Shown: positions 28,495-43,621 of the stretch, piece by piece
How positions within the stretch are numbered: position 1 is the stretch's first letter
Layout: every line of letters begins with the position of its first letter
Assembly: GCF_050320075.1 (NCBI RefSeq)
Contig: NZ_CP190019.1
From: Escherichia coli
Lineage (GTDB): Bacteria > Pseudomonadota > Gammaproteobacteria > Enterobacterales > Enterobacteriaceae
Reading direction: 5' to 3' (one strand)
Length of the DNA: 64,000 nt
The notes under the pieces: model-generated
Databases searched by the model: none
Told to the model about the DNA's origin: nothing
The model's input: the letters and a program-made list of their open reading frames with translations, nothing else
Made by a program: the position numbers and the translations under genes

Positions 28495-28578
28495 GTTGAC
28501 CCACAAACACTTTCAGGAAACGGTACAGACTTCCTGAATAAATCAAATAGTCACCTGCGGAAAAGGAATAATCATCAG

Positions 28579-36386: not shown

Positions 36387-37178
36387 TTATGCGTGTCTGT
36401 TTTTCAGCATTGTGACAGCATCGGACTCAGGAATCGAAAACTGCACCCGGTGCCGTGCAGCCACATCCAGCGCAAACACCTTCGTGTACACCTCTGTCGA
36501 ACTAATCGACTTGTGCCCCATCAGGCTCTGCAGCACCTTCAGCGGAATACCAGCATACAGCATATGCATCGCGTAGGAATGGCGGAAAGTATGTGGGGTA
36601 ACCGGAACAGAGAACGTCACGCCGTCGGCCGCAGCGGCCTCTACAGCTTCATTCAGCCAGGTGCGAACTGTGCGGTCGGTGATTCCCCAGATGCGCGCCT
36701 TCTCCATTCTTCCGGTTCGTTTGTTTCTGCGCTCCAGTGGGATTTTCAGCGTGGCCACCATCATCTGCAGTTGGCTGACGTATTGTGTATCGGACAGGGG
36801 AACCAGGCGATGCACCTGACTGCCAGCAGGGACACGGCCTGCCGTTCTGGTCGCTTTTTCAGTCCGTTGTTTGAGCGTGGCCAGCTGTACGAACGGATAT
36901 GGCGGCGCCAGAGAAAAATCTCCCCGCGTCAGCGCCAGCGCTTCGTTTATACGTGCGCCCGTGTTCCACAGGGTGGCCAGCAACATTTTGCGGTGCAGAT
37001 CCGGTACATAGTGGAGCAGGGCGCTGATCTCCGGCGCCAACAGATATTTTGGTAATTCGTCCTGCACAAGTGCCATCTGACGTAGTGCCAGCGCAGCCGG
37101 GTAATCAATGGCAACAGGTAATGTTGCCGGAGGCGTTAAAAAAGAACCAGGCAGGGAAAGCAATTGTGGGCCACTCAT
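36387..37178 (-). CDS. Tyrosine site-specific recombinase (ResD/XerD-like), 263 aa
   Basis: C-terminal catalytic region …HTFRHSYAMHMLYAGIPLKVLQSLMGHKSISSTEVYTKV…; paralogous to int at 1263..2003. Confidence 0.8.
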   Translation of the reverse strand: MSGPQLLSLPGSFLTPPATLPVAIDYPAALALRQMALVQDELPKYLLAPEISALLHYVPDLHRKMLLATLWNTGARINEALALTRGDFSLAPPYPFVQLATLKQRTEKATRTAGRVPAGSQVHRLVPLSDTQYVSQLQMMVATLKIPLERRNKRTGRMEKARIWGITDRTVRTWLNEAVEAAAADGVTFSVPVTPHTFRHSYAMHMLYAGIPLKVLQSLMGHKSISSTEVYTKVFALDVAARHRVQFSIPESDAVTMLKNRHA

Positions 37179-37864
37179 GATGTCCCCTTTATGAAATCCT
37201 CAATCTCTTGCTCGGTCTTTTTAGACTTCTTTACCATTTCGTACTCCTTTTGGAGTGTTTTACCTCTGGCTTTCAACAATACCAACCTCGTTGGCGATAG
37301 TGTATCGGAAAGGCCGTGCAGAGGGAGGCCACATAACATTCTCAGTTCTCGTGATAACCGCAGTGCTTTTACTCCCAACATAGCTGCGTTTTTATGCAAA
37401 CTATATTCACCCGCTCCACCATAAGGAGTATCTTCAACAAACACATTATCTACACACACGACAGCTTCGTAGCTGAGAACAGAGAGTTCGCTGAGCCTAT
37501 ACATCAGGCCAGAAGGAAGGGAGCGCCAGTTACCAGATACCGGGGAATAATCGATTTCCGGTAATAAGAACTCAGCTTCTCCTCTGCCATCCTGATCGTG
37601 CTCCACAGTTGCTGTTGCTGCTGGAGCGCAACGCTGCGCAAATCGCTCAAGTAAAAAAACCAGCTCTGTACTAATGTAAAGACGCTCGCTGGCCAGCTTC
37701 GCTGCTGCAGTTCTCTCCTCACGTCTGAGTGTGAAGTGGTGAGTAAGGAACACCGCTCCGACAGCAGATGCGATGGTCGATACAGCTGTAATTATCTGCG
37801 GCCCCAGACTGGCGCTGTCCTTCACCACCTTCACGCCTTCGGTCGCAATAAACCAGTCAGCCAT
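37175..37864 (-). CDS. Hypothetical membrane-anchored protein (229 aa)
   Basis: N-terminal hydrophobic helix (IITAVSTIASAVGAVFLTHHF); stop overlaps recombinase start (ATGA). Confidence 0.5.
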   Translation of the reverse strand: MADWFIATEGVKVVKDSASLGPQIITAVSTIASAVGAVFLTHHFTLRREERTAAAKLASERLYISTELVFLLERFAQRCAPAATATVEHDQDGRGEAEFLLPEIDYSPVSGNWRSLPSGLMYRLSELSVLSYEAVVCVDNVFVEDTPYGGAGEYSLHKNAAMLGVKALRLSRELRMLCGLPLHGLSDTLSPTRLVLLKARGKTLQKEYEMVKKSKKTEQEIEDFIKGTS

Positions 37865-37907: not shown

Positions 37908-38258
37908 TCAGCGGTCGGCAGCCAGTTCTTCAGCCAGCTTCACAAAGCCTTTGTGCTCAGTCTGCAGGTAATGGCTGTAAATCCGGGCATCACGTTCTGT
38001 GAGCCCGGATGGATTGCCGGTGAAGTAACGTTGCAGCACCGCAATACAGTGATTGTAGGTATCGAGATCATATTCCCAGTTTCCCAGCTCACCGGCCGCA
38101 TCCAGCTCCCGGCGAAACTGCTCGTATTTACGGAGCAGAATGCCAAGACCTAATTCTGTTGCAGCATAAACATTATTTTCTCCTGGCGCGGAAATCGCAT
38201 TACGGATTTTTTCAAAAGCATAACTGAAATCATTTCTCTCATTGAATGCAGTAAACAT
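37908..38258 (-). CDS. Hypothetical protein (116 aa)
   Basis: ORF 44 bp upstream of the 229-aa gene, same strand. Confidence 0.45.
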   Translation of the reverse strand: MFTAFNERNDFSYAFEKIRNAISAPGENNVYAATELGLGILLRKYEQFRRELDAAGELGNWEYDLDTYNHCIAVLQRYFTGNPSGLTERDARIYSHYLQTEHKGFVKLAEELAADR

Positions 38259-38437
38259 GTCCTTTCCTCAGTTGAATAGTTAGCCGTGCAATTTTACCAC
38301 ACCTCAATCATCGCCAGATGAGTGCCACTCTGTTGAGAACAGTGACTTTCACAAAAAATGAATTTCACATACTGAAATAATAAGTAGCCATATAGAAACG
38401 CAGTTAAATTACCGGAGAGCCGTTTCCGTCAGATCCG

Positions 38438-38466
38438 ACTTTCCGGAATATCACAACTTTCCGGAA
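38438..38466. promoter_or_regulatory. Two copies of palindromic octamer TTCCGGAA (within ACTTTCCGGAA direct repeats)
   Basis: ACTTTCCGGAA at 38438-38448 and 38456-38466, about 180 bp upstream of the 116-aa gene. Confidence 0.3.
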
Positions 38467-38710
38467 GTGTACCACGCTGAGAAAATAATCATATCGCTGT
38501 TTTCCGCCCCTGCGCGGCGCATCACAGGTCAGGGAGATGACACAACATATAGTGTCATGAGCAGCTGAATGAGATACCACATGTTGTGCTGACAGGAGGT
38601 GGCGTTGTGTGGGGGGAGAGGAAGATCCGTAACCAGGAGTTTTCGGATCTTCCTGAAGAAAAAGAAAGATTAATGTAAAATTAACAATAATTAACAGCCA
38701 TTGATAACTA

Positions 38711-38745
38711 AAACAGATTAATGCACATTAAGCATTAATCTGTTT
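38711..38745. repeat. Perfect inverted repeat (14-bp arms, 7-bp spacer) with ATTAATGC half-site
   Basis: AAACAGATTAATGC-ACATTAA-GCATTAATCTGTTT, 45 bp downstream of the KAP NTPase stop; followed by a T-run on the + strand. Confidence 0.6.
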
Positions 38746-38789
38746 TTATTTTTGTATTTAAGGCAATTAAAACACCGTATCAATGATGC

Positions 38790-41700
38790 TCAGTCATAAA
38801 ACTCAACATCACGGACATAGCGTACGGGAGTAATAACAATTTTGTGTTCATCACGCCCTGACCCCATTTTTGGCGGCTGAATAAATCCAAGATTGCTGAT
38901 TAATTCGGCCACTTCCCACAAATCCACGGAGTGAGGGATTTTCCTGAACCTGTCATGTGGTAACAGTCCATGATAGCTCTCATCAGCAAAACTGTTCAGC
39001 ACCACGCAAAGCGCGTCTTTGCCAGCATCCCCGGCAACCAGACAACGTTTAAGCAGTGTCAGGCGCAGATCATCGTCACCCATCCAGGGACTCAGTTCTG
39101 CCAGAATATCTAATGACAGCAGGTAGCTCTTATCAAGAATTCCCGGTTTGTTATCACGCAACCAGCGTAAAGCGGCAACTTTTATATTCATACCGATTAG
39201 CTTGTGACGAAAAAGTTCGCTTGCCAGTTCTTCATCAAAGTCACCCTCGATATAAAAAATATCTTCTGGCTCCTGGGTAATAATCTCAGGACGCTGGGCA
39301 ATAAGGTTACCAAGCAGAGTATTCATCCTGTTAATATCATCAACATTTCCACAGAGAGCATTAAACAACACCGTAAAGACATTAACTGTCGGTGCCAGTT
39401 TTTTCTCTGAACATAACAGTTCAGCATTTCGCAATGGAATGTTTTCAGGCACATCGATAATAACAACGTTTAAATTACTCAGTACTTTCAGTAAAGCTTC
39501 TTCTGAAATGACTGGCGAGCAAATTAATTCAGAAATAAAATTATTAAATATTCCTGTATCATTTATGACTATATCAGATGGTTCAAATTCAAAGTGTTTC
39601 TCATTTACCCACTGAACAAGTTCACCGGAAGTATTAATTGATGTATCATGCAATAAATGAATAATATTATCAAAGGATGGAAAAATCCTGTCATGCTGCA
39701 ACAGCATGCTATAGATATTTCTCCCTGAAGCATTATTGTCCGCACACTCTGAACGATTAATAATATCATCCAGATTATTTATACAAAAATCCATTTTGGC
39801 TATAATCTGTTCAACAACAGTCATTGAGACTTCAGAAGAATTCAGCAATTCAGGAATACGATCAATCTCTTCCGATTCAATAAATACCGATAAAATAAAA
39901 TCTTCTATGTTAGTCCACAGAACTTCTGTTAATTCAGAAATAGCCAGGGACTCGAGACAATGAAACGGATAAAGAGAGAATGACATTCTTTCTTCATTCT
40001 TGTCTTGCGTCAGGCAAAGATAAACATTTTTAAGATTACTGACGGAATATTTGAATAATCCTGCACCCGCAATTTTCCTGATAACAGAACACTTCTCGTC
40101 TCCCACATCACCTGGAATATATGAAACTGAAAGTGTATTATCTTTCAACACTTCAAAAAACGCATCACCATATCCTTTTGGCACAGCAGTAATAAGAATT
40201 GGGGAGGAATCTATAAGTTCACCGATACGTTTATTAATCTCAACCGATTGCCAGATATTTGATTTTTCAGTCAGGCATAACAGGTGTGCCGCTATTTCCT
40301 GAACAAAAAACTTTTGCTCGGGTGTGCGTTCTTCTGACGCACATAAATGTGCCAGCAATCTGTTCAGTATATGTTCATCTGACATAAAAATCTCCAGGTA
40401 ACGCAGGCGAACATACGTTGTGAAATCGTTCTGCATCAACATCAGCAAACTAACCACACGCTGGCTACCCGTCTGACTCAGTAATGCCATTATATTGTTT
40501 TTCAGGGTATCAGGGTCATTATCAATCAGCCATCTGATAACAGCAGGATGTTGAGCATTGTCACGCTGCAGAACCCCCAGCTTTTTGAGTCGTTCAACAA
40601 TATTATTAACGTTATCAAGATGGAATGAGAATGTTTTTTCCGGACCTTTACCAGACATAACATCCTTAAGAAATAAATTATCTGTCTCACTCAGCCCTCC
40701 GGGAATGAAGATTGAGCGATAGGACATGTAATCTGTTGATAAATAACCACTTGATAACAGAAAAAATATAAAGTCAATCTGTTCATGTTCCGACTGAATC
40801 GTCAGGACACCTGTATCCTCTTTCTTCTTTATCCAGGCAACAAAGCCTTCATTTGTCATCTTTTCTGCTATATCAGCTACAGTTCCGGAAAGAATTTCGG
40901 TCCTCAATGACTCCAGACTGGAAATATTATTTTTCACTCTGGTTATATTATCAACAGATTTAGTTTCAATTAAATGGCATCGTTTTTCATACTGCTGCTT
41001 CAGTTTTTCTGTATCCCGCTGATTTATCATGAGAAAAATTTGTCTGTTATAGGGGGTAACGACCTGAATATTTTCCTTATCTAAAAGCATGAGAAATTCA
41101 TCTTCATCTTGTATCAAATCATCAAGACTTATTTGCCTTCCTTCTGTATAAAAAACAAGCGCGCCGCTATAATTTTTACTAAGGTAAGGCATGAGCAGTT
41201 CTTCGCGCAGATTTTCCCGGTTTGCGAGTTTTTCATTTGTTATCGCTACAAGTGACTGTGCCATATCCTCAAGTTCGTTATTTGCAGAATGTAATAATTC
41301 ATTCTGAATTTCATGGTCTAAGTAGCTTTGAATAAAATGATAAAGAACACCTTTTTTACTATCTATACCATGATAATCTTCCGCACAGAGATTTTTATAT
41401 GCTATCATGGCAAGTAGTTTGGCCAGATTTTCCCGACTATTGACTAAATTCTGATAGAGTCGAAACTCATTTGTAATATTATGCATTACACGCATATTGG
41501 GAATAAATGTCGCAATACGAGAAATACATTCGCTTAAGTTATTATTTATCTCTTCTTCTTTGAATTTTTTAACAAAATGCTCATAAGCATTCTGGTTATC
41601 CATCACTGGAATAACAGGCATAACAAAATCAAAGAATTTCGTTCTTGACTCTGCTGAGTTGAAAATACCATCTCTGACAGCATAAATAAATTTTACAGGT

Positions 41701-42611
41701 TTTCTGTCAGAAAGGCAGTTATTAATAATTTGATTGATTTCCCGCAATTTCACGAAAATCCGGCCATTGTTAAAACGGTCAAGATCTTCGAATATCACTA
41801 CATCATATTTAGTCGAATCAAAAAAATAGACAATTTCATCAATATAGACATTAAGTAAAGAAGGTGATGATGCCCGGGTTGTAACAGCGCCTTTCAGAAG
41901 GTCCACTTTATCAAGACTTACTTTCCTGTCAAATATACCGATACGATGTAACTGGTTCAAAAGCAGGCATAACGATCCCATCACAGATGCCACTGCACCG
42001 GACACACGCACCCCAAACGGGCATTCAAGAAGGTAACGGGCGAATGCTCCCGGCAAAGATAGCTTTGTTGTAACGTAATCCGGCGCAAGGAAAAATAAAG
42101 CAGCTCCACTCAGTAAAATGGTTCCTGTCAGAAAAGACGCAGACCGCAATATTTGTCCCGCAGTCACATCTGATATACGGTCAATGCGGGAACAGGGAAG
42201 CTCATGCTTTTTATTTTTGTAGAGTATTTGTTGCAGAATACTGTATTCAATAGATTTTTCAACACTACCAGTATTTTTCGTCCCTTCGTCACTACTGCTG
42301 TCCCCATTACTTTCATCCACATGTCTCTGCATATCAAAATCAGCAAGAGAAACGGTTAACACCCGCAGTGTCCCATTGTGAGCTTTGCACCATGTTTTTA
42401 ATACTGAGCTTTTCCCTGCCCCATACGGCCCGGTAACAGCAATATTCCGGATATCCGGATGTTCATAAGCATAATTAAGCGCGCTGATATAACAGCCTGC
42501 TTTATCTGAGTCGAGTTCTGTCGGAGTCAGTGCTTCATAGCTCACTGCATTTGCCTCAGCATGATCACTATCGGCAACGATCGGTGTCAGCCACGGTGTG
42601 GACATTATCAT
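38790..42611 (-). CDS. KAP-family P-loop NTPase with intra-domain transmembrane helices (1273 aa); function unknown
   Basis: Walker A NIAVTGPYGAGKSS; hydrophobic helices (FLTGTILLSGAALFFLAP, VRVSGAVASVMGSLCLLLNQL) inserted before Walker B-like YDVVIFEDLDRF; about 950-aa C-terminal region without assignable motif. Confidence 0.65.
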   Translation of the reverse strand: MIMSTPWLTPIVADSDHAEANAVSYEALTPTELDSDKAGCYISALNYAYEHPDIRNIAVTGPYGAGKSSVLKTWCKAHNGTLRVLTVSLADFDMQRHVDESNGDSSSDEGTKNTGSVEKSIEYSILQQILYKNKKHELPCSRIDRISDVTAGQILRSASFLTGTILLSGAALFFLAPDYVTTKLSLPGAFARYLLECPFGVRVSGAVASVMGSLCLLLNQLHRIGIFDRKVSLDKVDLLKGAVTTRASSPSLLNVYIDEIVYFFDSTKYDVVIFEDLDRFNNGRIFVKLREINQIINNCLSDRKPVKFIYAVRDGIFNSAESRTKFFDFVMPVIPVMDNQNAYEHFVKKFKEEEINNNLSECISRIATFIPNMRVMHNITNEFRLYQNLVNSRENLAKLLAMIAYKNLCAEDYHGIDSKKGVLYHFIQSYLDHEIQNELLHSANNELEDMAQSLVAITNEKLANRENLREELLMPYLSKNYSGALVFYTEGRQISLDDLIQDEDEFLMLLDKENIQVVTPYNRQIFLMINQRDTEKLKQQYEKRCHLIETKSVDNITRVKNNISSLESLRTEILSGTVADIAEKMTNEGFVAWIKKKEDTGVLTIQSEHEQIDFIFFLLSSGYLSTDYMSYRSIFIPGGLSETDNLFLKDVMSGKGPEKTFSFHLDNVNNIVERLKKLGVLQRDNAQHPAVIRWLIDNDPDTLKNNIMALLSQTGSQRVVSLLMLMQNDFTTYVRLRYLEIFMSDEHILNRLLAHLCASEERTPEQKFFVQEIAAHLLCLTEKSNIWQSVEINKRIGELIDSSPILITAVPKGYGDAFFEVLKDNTLSVSYIPGDVGDEKCSVIRKIAGAGLFKYSVSNLKNVYLCLTQDKNEERMSFSLYPFHCLESLAISELTEVLWTNIEDFILSVFIESEEIDRIPELLNSSEVSMTVVEQIIAKMDFCINNLDDIINRSECADNNASGRNIYSMLLQHDRIFPSFDNIIHLLHDTSINTSGELVQWVNEKHFEFEPSDIVINDTGIFNNFISELICSPVISEEALLKVLSNLNVVIIDVPENIPLRNAELLCSEKKLAPTVNVFTVLFNALCGNVDDINRMNTLLGNLIAQRPEIITQEPEDIFYIEGDFDEELASELFRHKLIGMNIKVAALRWLRDNKPGILDKSYLLSLDILAELSPWMGDDDLRLTLLKRCLVAGDAGKDALCVVLNSFADESYHGLLPHDRFRKIPHSVDLWEVAELISNLGFIQPPKMGSGRDEHKIVITPVRYVRDVEFYD

Positions 42612-43381: not shown

Positions 43382-43621
43382 AGGAGCACCTCCGTTCCAT
43401 GATGTAAACGTGACACAGCTTATTGTTATTGATTATTATTATCATGCTGTGATTATGTTGTCATGCACCGGTACACTGACAAAAGAAAGGGAGAACAGGA
43501 GGCCGGCTGATGAACAGGAAATATTATCTTAATCCGCGTAAGCGGGCCGTGAGGGCCGCTTACAAGCGTGTATGAGATCAGTTTGGATATTCGAAATTAT
43601 TGTACGTTTAACGCACCATAC

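Follow-up and report, generated by a model that had tools for sequence, protein, structure and literature searches.

Paired octamers upstream of a resD operon and the conserved layout of the plasmid multimer-resolution site rfsF

In the TnpI/IRS systems of Tn4430 and Tn5401, a tyrosine recombinase acts on an inverted-repeat core that is accompanied on one side by extra recombinase motifs, and in Tn5401 the resolution site overlaps the promoter that TnpI represses. Xer recombination relies on accessory proteins (i.e. ArgR and PepA at cer, ArcA and PepA at psi), as do the Fim recombinases (∼200 aa), and pSDL2 has a crs site with 17-bp direct repeats. The system closest to the locus analysed here is rfsF–ResD, which is found in F, in the IncI1 plasmids R64 and ColIb-P9, in IncR plasmids and in pSLT (as rfsF–RsdB). 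The site has been known since 1986. It is the target of ResD (PMC4398462), is characterized in PMC5587640 as 10–14-bp imperfect inverted repeats around a 6–8-bp spacer, and is a switch point for the IncI1 'Delta' and 'Col' gene sets and for IncR/IncI1 segments (PMC8004404, PMC9412624). According to its title, as cited in PMC5587640, the paper by Lane et al. (1986) presents the D protein as both a transcription repressor and a resolvase. Literature searches gave nothing usable on D-protein binding, pST1007-1A, crs/rsd or TTCCGGAA, and no site sequence in the supplements.

The window (i.e. the whole 64-kb stretch of Escherichia coli DNA that was analysed) is a plasmid segment of the IncFIB/FIC ColBM type with iro, cvi, cbi, cma and cmi genes. 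A preliminary description of this DNA pointed to two copies of ACTTTCCGGAA upstream of a recombinase operon and read them as tandem operators for a dimeric regulator; that the region is the rfsF multimer-resolution site, as the 90% identity of the recombinase to ResD and the DNA homology described below show, had escaped it.

The operon and its upstream region

The operon consists of three genes.

36387–37178, minus strand: resD, encoding a 263-aa tyrosine recombinase (90% identical to F ResD, 88% to pSLT RsdB)
37175–37864, minus strand: second gene of the operon, 229 aa (PADLOC PDC-S67, E = 1.2e-17)
37908–38258, minus strand: first gene of the operon, 116 aa, with no family match

The recombinase that ends the operon is 90% identical to the F-plasmid ResD (the D protein) over 244 aa and matches the Phage_integrase catalytic domain. 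Its alignment to XerD and XerC profiles starts only at about position 95, which suggests that the catalytic domain makes up most of the protein and that the N-terminal core-binding domain normally found in such recombinases is missing; no solved structure was found among its close relatives. In this respect ResD seems to resemble FimB and FimE, from which it differs in resolving direct repeats without inverting a segment, and it matches the invertase family only weakly (E = 2.5e-4). Fragments of ResD are also present in assemblies labelled Desulfosporosinus, Aquimarina, Raphidiopsis, Alicyclobacillus, Collinsella, Lachnospiraceae and Haemophilus (L070–L075, L047, L011 and L053), several of them spanning exactly the same residues, 148–260, at 89% identity. 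These are most simply explained as contamination by mini-F-derived fosmid/BAC vectors or by enterobacterial plasmid DNA.

The two other genes stand where F has ccdA and ccdB. PDC-S67 is a PADLOC candidate defence family, and the 116-aa and 229-aa genes may form a small defence or addiction module in the slot held by ccdAB in F.

The intergenic DNA at 38377–38669 is homologous to the rfsF/oriV1 region of F, R64, ColIb-P9 and pSLT. It is 81% identical over 277 bp to F nt 45,907–46,181, upstream of ccdA, and 92–94% identical to the IncI1 plasmids; F nt 45,909–46,160, on the opposite strand and upstream of ccdA-ccdB-resD, is collinear with 38669–38400 of the window. The region matched 4,572 plasmid records, mostly across its internal part only, and in IncI1, IncI-gamma, IncFIA/IncR and F plasmids this internal part is invariably followed by an operon with a site-specific integrase gene at its end. 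Both the rfsF–ResD system and this sequence are already known, and the sequence is annotated as rfsF in F, R64 and ColIb-P9. Compared with these, the locus in the window has homologous site DNA, the same core arms with only the 6-bp spacer differing, and the same position upstream of an operon ending in resD. It is highly probable that the octamers belong to the operon-side accessory part of rfsF, a ∼280-bp multimer-resolution site (38377–38669), and that the two copies are not equivalent.

Crossover core and outer flank

Only one GATCCG-N14-CGGATC sequence is present in the window.

38620–38653, no strand assigned: rfsF crossover core, with arms GGAAGATCCGTAAC (38620–38633) and TTTTCGGATCTTCC (38640–38653) around the spacer CAGGAG (38634–38639)

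The 14-bp arms are symmetric at 12 of 14 positions around a 6-bp spacer, which fits the description of rfsF in PMC5587640; across the family, the arms are invariant and the spacer is variable. Published coordinates lead to the same place. The rfsF-to-yfcA segment of R64 is reported to start with rfsF at nt 43,620 (PMC8004404), and the RepFIA/rfsF homology of pEC958 starts at F nt 45,922 (PMC4398462); each of these is the first base of the homologous AGATCCG. Natural chimeras also change partner here. In a five-way alignment, R64 has the outer (pif) flank of F through the core and is ColIb-P9-like from there on, while ColIb-P9 and R64 are fully different outside AGATCCG, differ by one spacer base and are identical inside. 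In plasmid A of E. coli C3, the outer flank is that of the window (Tmn gene plus terminator) as far as the core, beyond which the plasmid has the ccdAB-resD side of F, and IncI1-type megablast matches to the window end at 38628–38635, within the core. These comparisons indirectly place strand exchange at 38620–38653 and not at the octamers. Since the published rfsF coordinates, the chimera junctions and the match ends all fall at the core, the crossover is placed ∼155–195 bp away from the octamers, and the octamer pair was rejected as a crossover core.

The layout recalls Xer/cer and Xer/psi, in which two arms around a 6–8-bp spacer are joined by ∼200 bp of one-sided accessory sequence; here too, such sequence would give selectivity for resolution. 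It differs in that the recombinase is plasmid-encoded, that the core arms are unrelated to dif/cer, and that a crude consensus test of 41 loci found no ArgR or ArcA boxes.

On the outer side, the core is adjoined by a 1273-aa gene (38790–42611, minus strand), which is the anti-phage ATPase Tmn according to a full-length PADLOC match. F and R64 carry pifA/pifC, with an identical protein accession, in the position of Tmn, and in a Klebsiella plasmid an AIPR gene is close by. It looks as though anti-phage cargo is exchanged at the outer flank of rfsF, and the same exchange is hinted at for IncI1 in PMC8004404. Between the Tmn stop codon and rfsF (38710–38746) there is a hairpin with a 15-bp stem and T runs on both sides, which looks like a bidirectional terminator insulating the site.

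The octamer copies in the conserved layout

The preliminary description had located the two copies of ACTTTCCGGAA at 38438–38448 and 38456–38466, 18 bp apart and about 180 bp upstream of the 116-aa gene, and had called TTCCGGAA self-complementary; each of these statements is borne out. Both 11-mers are exact on the plus strand, with a period of 18 bp and 7 bp separating them (the stretch reads gACTTTCCGGAAtatcacaACTTTCCGGAAgtg), the octamer within ACTTTCCGGAA is its own complement, and the nearest downstream gene is the 116-aa ORF (38258–37908, minus strand), 180 bp from the pair. Relative to the operon the copies are as follows.

38456–38466, minus strand: operon-distal 11-mer copy, reading TTCCGGAAAGT, with a conserved octamer at 38459–38466
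38438–38448, minus strand: operon-proximal 11-mer copy, with a lineage-specific TTCCGG part (38443–38448) and a conserved AAAGT (38438–38442) that abuts the arm-like block C

Chance was modelled by first-order Markov simulation of the window (300 simulated windows). A close exact 11-mer direct repeat (≤40 bp) arose in 30% of the simulated windows, and one with a palindromic octamer in 1%; taken alone, the 11-mer repeat is only mildly unusual by chance. The window holds a third TTCCGGAA at 40883, inside the 1273-aa gene, giving three observed against 1.2 expected, which alone is not significant. A search for the motif elsewhere on the plasmid, which had been proposed as a check, gave a divided answer in the window: no third exact ACTTTCCGGAA occurs anywhere in the 64 kb, and five copies with one mismatch were found where 0.86 were expected.

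7822, 28509, 33442, 40883 and 57669: one-mismatch 11-mers, scattered in coding or unrelated regions

Those at 28509 and 33442 read TTCCTGAAAGT and lie outside long ORFs, the flank of block B (see below) is absent from all five, and the excess is probably compositional. Two further exact 11-mer direct repeats at short distance are also present (TATCCCATTAC, AGATCACTTGG; 33125/33140, 60522/60543).

The better argument against chance comes from conservation. Of 72,556 plasmid records, 1,099 contain the 54 bp that hold the pair with an identity of at least 99%, so the pair is non-random; the same 54 bp are 100% identical in ColIb-P9 and also identical in R64, both of which carry the pair. The paired version is numerous in these records because its plasmid backbone is widespread.

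We collected 79 loci of ResD relatives from one-genome-per-species contigs, 40 of which were aligned with the window (41 loci in all), and a pattern search recovered the full layout in 49 loci representing 46 distinct sequences. In these 49 loci the order is core, 167–195 bp, block B, 29 bp, CGGATC (block C), 24 bp and GGTAATT (block D). The B-to-C distance is 29 bp in 47 of the 49 and the C-to-D distance is 24 bp in every one, while helical phase is not kept between the core and B.

38541–38588, no strand assigned: central inverted repeat, CACAACAT (38541–38548) and ATGTTGTG (38581–38588), with CAGCTG at its centre (38562–38567)
38456–38476, minus strand: block B, CGTGGTACACTTCCGGAAAGT, 21 nearly invariant bp in the 41-locus alignment and its column frequencies
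38431–38442, minus strand: block C, AAAGTCGGATCT, a third, isolated core-arm-like sequence in the orientation of the operon-proximal arm
38405–38415, minus strand: block D, CCGGTAATTTA, invariant, 24 bp after C
38377–38394, minus strand: block E, TATATGGCTACTTATTAT, the inner end of rfsF, just beyond which homology among plasmid types stops

Block B includes the distal octamer and extends asymmetrically upstream of it (GTGGTACAC). Column conservation across CGTGGTACACTTCCGGAAA (38476–38458, minus strand) is 0.83–1.00, with most columns at 0.9 or above, and reaches 0.95–1.00 per column in the distal 11-mer. Downstream of B, the interval 38443–38455 is essentially free to vary, AAAnTCGGATC (38442–38432) is conserved, the CGGATC of block C (38432–38437) is invariant in all 41 aligned loci, and TATATGGCTGCTTATTAT (38394–38377) is conserved by column frequencies. 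The central inverted repeat, midway between the core and block B, is moderately conserved and is paired in single-stranded DNA folds. The GATCCG/CGGATC arms (38432–38437, 38624–38629 and 38644–38649) each contain a Dam site, GATC, and the arm hexamers are invariant in essentially every locus; ResD binding might possibly sense hemimethylation after replication.

The two octamers fare very differently in this layout. At the distal position (38459–38466), TTCCGGAA is kept in 42 of 49 loci and TTCCG in all 49; the seven others read TTCCGGTT, TTCCGAAA or TTCCGGGA, with TTCCGGTT in distant relatives. At the proximal position (38441–38448), TTCCGGAA occurs in only six of 49 loci (the window, R64, ColIb-P9, L002, L003 and L053), and TTCCGGAAAGT in four of the 41 aligned loci. 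F reads TCAAATAA at the proximal octamer (TCAAATAAAGT across the 11-mer) and so has a single TTCCGGAA, pSLT reads AGACAAAA, and the close relatives L011 and L026 read TTCAGGAA (with TTCAGG). The alignment thus places the proximal octamer in a variable interval between B and C, and confines it to the IncI1/ColBM sub-lineage.

These patterns bear directly on the reading of the TTCCGGAA palindromes as tandem operators, at which a symmetric dimer of a dedicated regulator would control the recombinase operon. Two exact copies 18 bp apart with perfect 8-bp palindromes, a combination seen in 1% of simulated windows, do stand upstream of the operon and are kept in the 1,099 near-identical plasmid copies. 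However, the pair is no unit: the proximal octamer is variable spacer in 43 of 49 loci (F and pSLT among them), and even the close relatives L011 and L026 have TTCAGG there. Nor does the palindrome behave as a dimer site: palindromy is not the selected feature, because the octamer of B reads otherwise in seven loci, with the dyad broken, and the asymmetric TGnTAnnnT flank is kept there. An 8-bp palindrome has its half-sites just 4 bp apart, a spacing at which helix-turn-helix dimers do not usually bind.

A dedicated regulator also finds no candidate among the genes of the operon. Those between the site and resD vary among loci: ccdA/ccdB (Pfam), a 139-aa IncI gene, a pair of 116 and 229/247 aa, or up to four unknown small ORFs, and none is linked with the pair. 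IncI1 plasmids carry the octamer pair without the 116/229-aa genes, and L004 and L008 carry these genes without the second octamer. Of the proteins encoded in the operon, ResD alone occurs at every locus; this excludes a regulator among the cargo genes, and the 116-aa and 229-aa genes were rejected as its source. We therefore regard tandem operators of this kind as very unlikely. What survives of the operator idea is a conserved, almost certainly protein-bound cis region of the operon with a promoter-like element over one of the copies. The preliminary description was partly right in this sense: right in spirit about a protein-binding control region and wrong in form about tandem palindromic operators.

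The octamers might also act by pairing with each other in single-stranded DNA or RNA, where an 8-bp stem with a 10-nt loop could serve as a structural signal such as an Frpo/ssi promoter, a role suggested by the wide spread of the intergenic element among conjugative plasmids. Minimum-free-energy and centroid folds of both strands do contain this stem. It cannot form, however, in the 43 of 49 loci that lack the second octamer, and this absence from most homologues led us to reject it. The folds give short local stems only (z-scores of −3.1 and −3.6) and no long Frpo-like hairpin, Rfam at E ≤ 1 pointed to no known RNA here and returned only two chance matches, elsewhere in the window, and the context is wrong in that the locus adjoins replication and colicin genes and not a conjugative leading region. 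An Frpo/ssi promoter was rejected on these grounds, and a structural signal of any such kind is extremely improbable.

Alternatively, the duplicated octamer of IncI1/ColBM plasmids could have gained a function of its own, as an extra site that alters the strength of repression or of synapsis. The duplication yields TTCCGGAAAGT fused directly to the C arm, and it has become fixed, with over 1,000 plasmid records containing it. This high number, however, reflects the clonal spread of near-identical backbones, TTCAGG is tolerated within the lineage (L011 and L026), and other lineages do without a second octamer. We consider a gained function improbable, and the second octamer would most likely be a neutral or mildly modulating variant and not a second operator.

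A candidate promoter and the proposed role of ResD

Two promoter-like elements point at the operon.

38466–38474, minus strand: putative extended −10, TGGTACACT (TGnTAnnnT), directed at the operon
38291–38299, minus strand: candidate promoter of the 116-aa gene, an extended −10 reading TGGTAAAAT, ∼30 bp upstream of the ATG

The last base of the TGGTACACT 9-mer is the first T of the distal octamer. TGnTAnnnT is kept in 42 of 46 distinct sequences, with TG, the −12 T, the −11 A and the −7 T held at 91–100% and changes found mainly at the n positions (TGCTACGCT, TGGTATACT and TGATACACT); F reads TTGTACACT here, without the G of TG. In a family-wide promoter scan with position weight matrices (PWMs), the block-B site is the most recurrent promoter-like position and is directed toward the operon. 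A stricter two-hexamer scan of 38100–38900 found no promoter. The candidate −35 is weak (TTTGCT/TTGCTT, 15–16 bp upstream; ATGATT in the window). The putative −10 hexamer, TACACT, has a C at two positions that is non-consensus yet invariant, which RNA polymerase alone does not explain.

Tentatively, block B may be read as an extended −10 promoter within rfsF that fires toward the operon, a detail that is nearly as likely to be right as wrong. Its predicted start lies at about 38459, inside the distal octamer, and would put this octamer at −7 to +1, the proximal octamer at +12 to +19 and the CGGATC of the C arm at +23 to +28. Against this reading, the known ccd promoter of F adjoins ccdA, well downstream of B. 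TGGTAAAAT has the second-best operon-direction score in the PWM scan and probably serves the cargo genes as a promoter of their own, independent of rfsF. In block E, TATTAT is a weaker promoter-like candidate that recurs in the family; the corresponding D/E promoter, TTAACT-19 bp-TATTAT, was set aside as a weaker alternative with too long a spacer.

Similar arrangements appear beyond the close relatives. Loci of a clade with ∼50% identical ResD (Buttiauxella, Erwinia and Pantoea) have no cargo genes, and they contain CTGGTATATT bracketed by TTCCG-N23-CGGAA, downstream of their own core-like GGATC-N7-GGATCC; this looks like a promoter within an operator. The clade with ∼50% identical ResD (L060–L068 and L078) also has a long inverted repeat, GCGCTACGTGAATTCT ... 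AGAATTCACGTAGCGC, ∼30–110 bp upstream of the recombinase ATG and immediately ahead of the ribosome-binding site. Its two halves differ between loci in a compensatory manner (CTACG/CGTAG vs CTGCG/CGCAG), and the repeat may be a second operator or else a hairpin of the leader RNA.

With a PWM built from 78 core arms, block C reaches 11.9 bits in the window, and 29 of 41 loci score 8 bits or more there; block B scores only 1.6 bits. Binding of ResD to B is therefore unsupported by sequence resemblance, and we do not claim B as a fourth ResD arm. A reading of B as both promoter and recombinase-binding site would nevertheless fit the repressor role that the title of Lane et al. (1986) gives to the D protein.

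Relying on the layout and these signals, we consider it likely that the accessory part of rfsF holds the octamers, and we propose that block B would provide a promoter there and that ResD would both repress it and build the resolution synapse. In this scheme (i) the extended −10 TGGTACACT of block B would fire toward the operon; (ii) ResD, bound at the arm-like C (∼+23 to +28), and probably also at B or beside it, would repress this promoter together with the upstream core; and (iii) in multimers, the same contacts would help to build a synapse that limits recombination to direct repeats on one molecule. An analogy is offered by TnpI/IRS, which may share an inverted-repeat core with at least one arm-like motif (here C) on the side of the recombinase gene, a promoter-like element within the site, and a recombinase that is reported to be a repressor too. 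It differs in that rfsF has no detectable sequence relationship to it, the accessory region of rfsF is longer (∼230 bp), and the best-conserved blocks, B and D, are unlike recombinase arms.

Alternatively, a host architectural or accessory protein could bind B and D and shape the synapse, with ResD touching only the GATCCG arms. Blocks B and D do not vary across many Enterobacterales genera and yet bear no resemblance to the core arms, and the rigid spacing is typical of a nucleoprotein complex. A TTCCG motif is found even in the ∼50%-identical clade, despite its different core arms, and ResD, seemingly without an N-terminal core-binding domain, may need help. Against this, a crude consensus search for IHF, ArgR, ArcA, Fis, DnaA and Lrp gave no position-conserved match in the 41 loci, no candidate protein can be named, and the pattern of variation in TGnTAnnnT is better explained by RNA polymerase. 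A host factor in place of ResD at these blocks is unlikely, and we favour repression and synapsis by ResD.

Implications for plasmid maintenance

The octamer pair belongs to a plasmid-maintenance element that is already known, in which it is an ordinary feature of one lineage, and no new kind of element is involved. The fine-structure map may nonetheless add detail to it, i.e. a core, block B and a third arm-like sequence at fixed spacing, with a possible embedded promoter. A more far-reaching picture, which we offer as speculation with a small chance of holding in full, is that rfsF is a ∼280-bp composite in which an invariant promoter, TGGTACACT, would sit between the core and the third arm and start inside TTCCGGAA; a single ResD assembly would carry out dimer resolution as well as repression of the operon, perhaps under the control of hemimethylation; and the site would also be a point of exchange between IncF, IncI1 and IncR plasmids for anti-phage cargo (e.g. 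pif, Tmn and others).

ResD and rfsF are present in thousands of clinically important IncF, IncI1 and IncR plasmids and are barely characterized. The map lets them be dissected by a few point mutations, and it fixes, with single-base precision, where module exchange between these plasmids takes place, with anti-phage genes among the modules.
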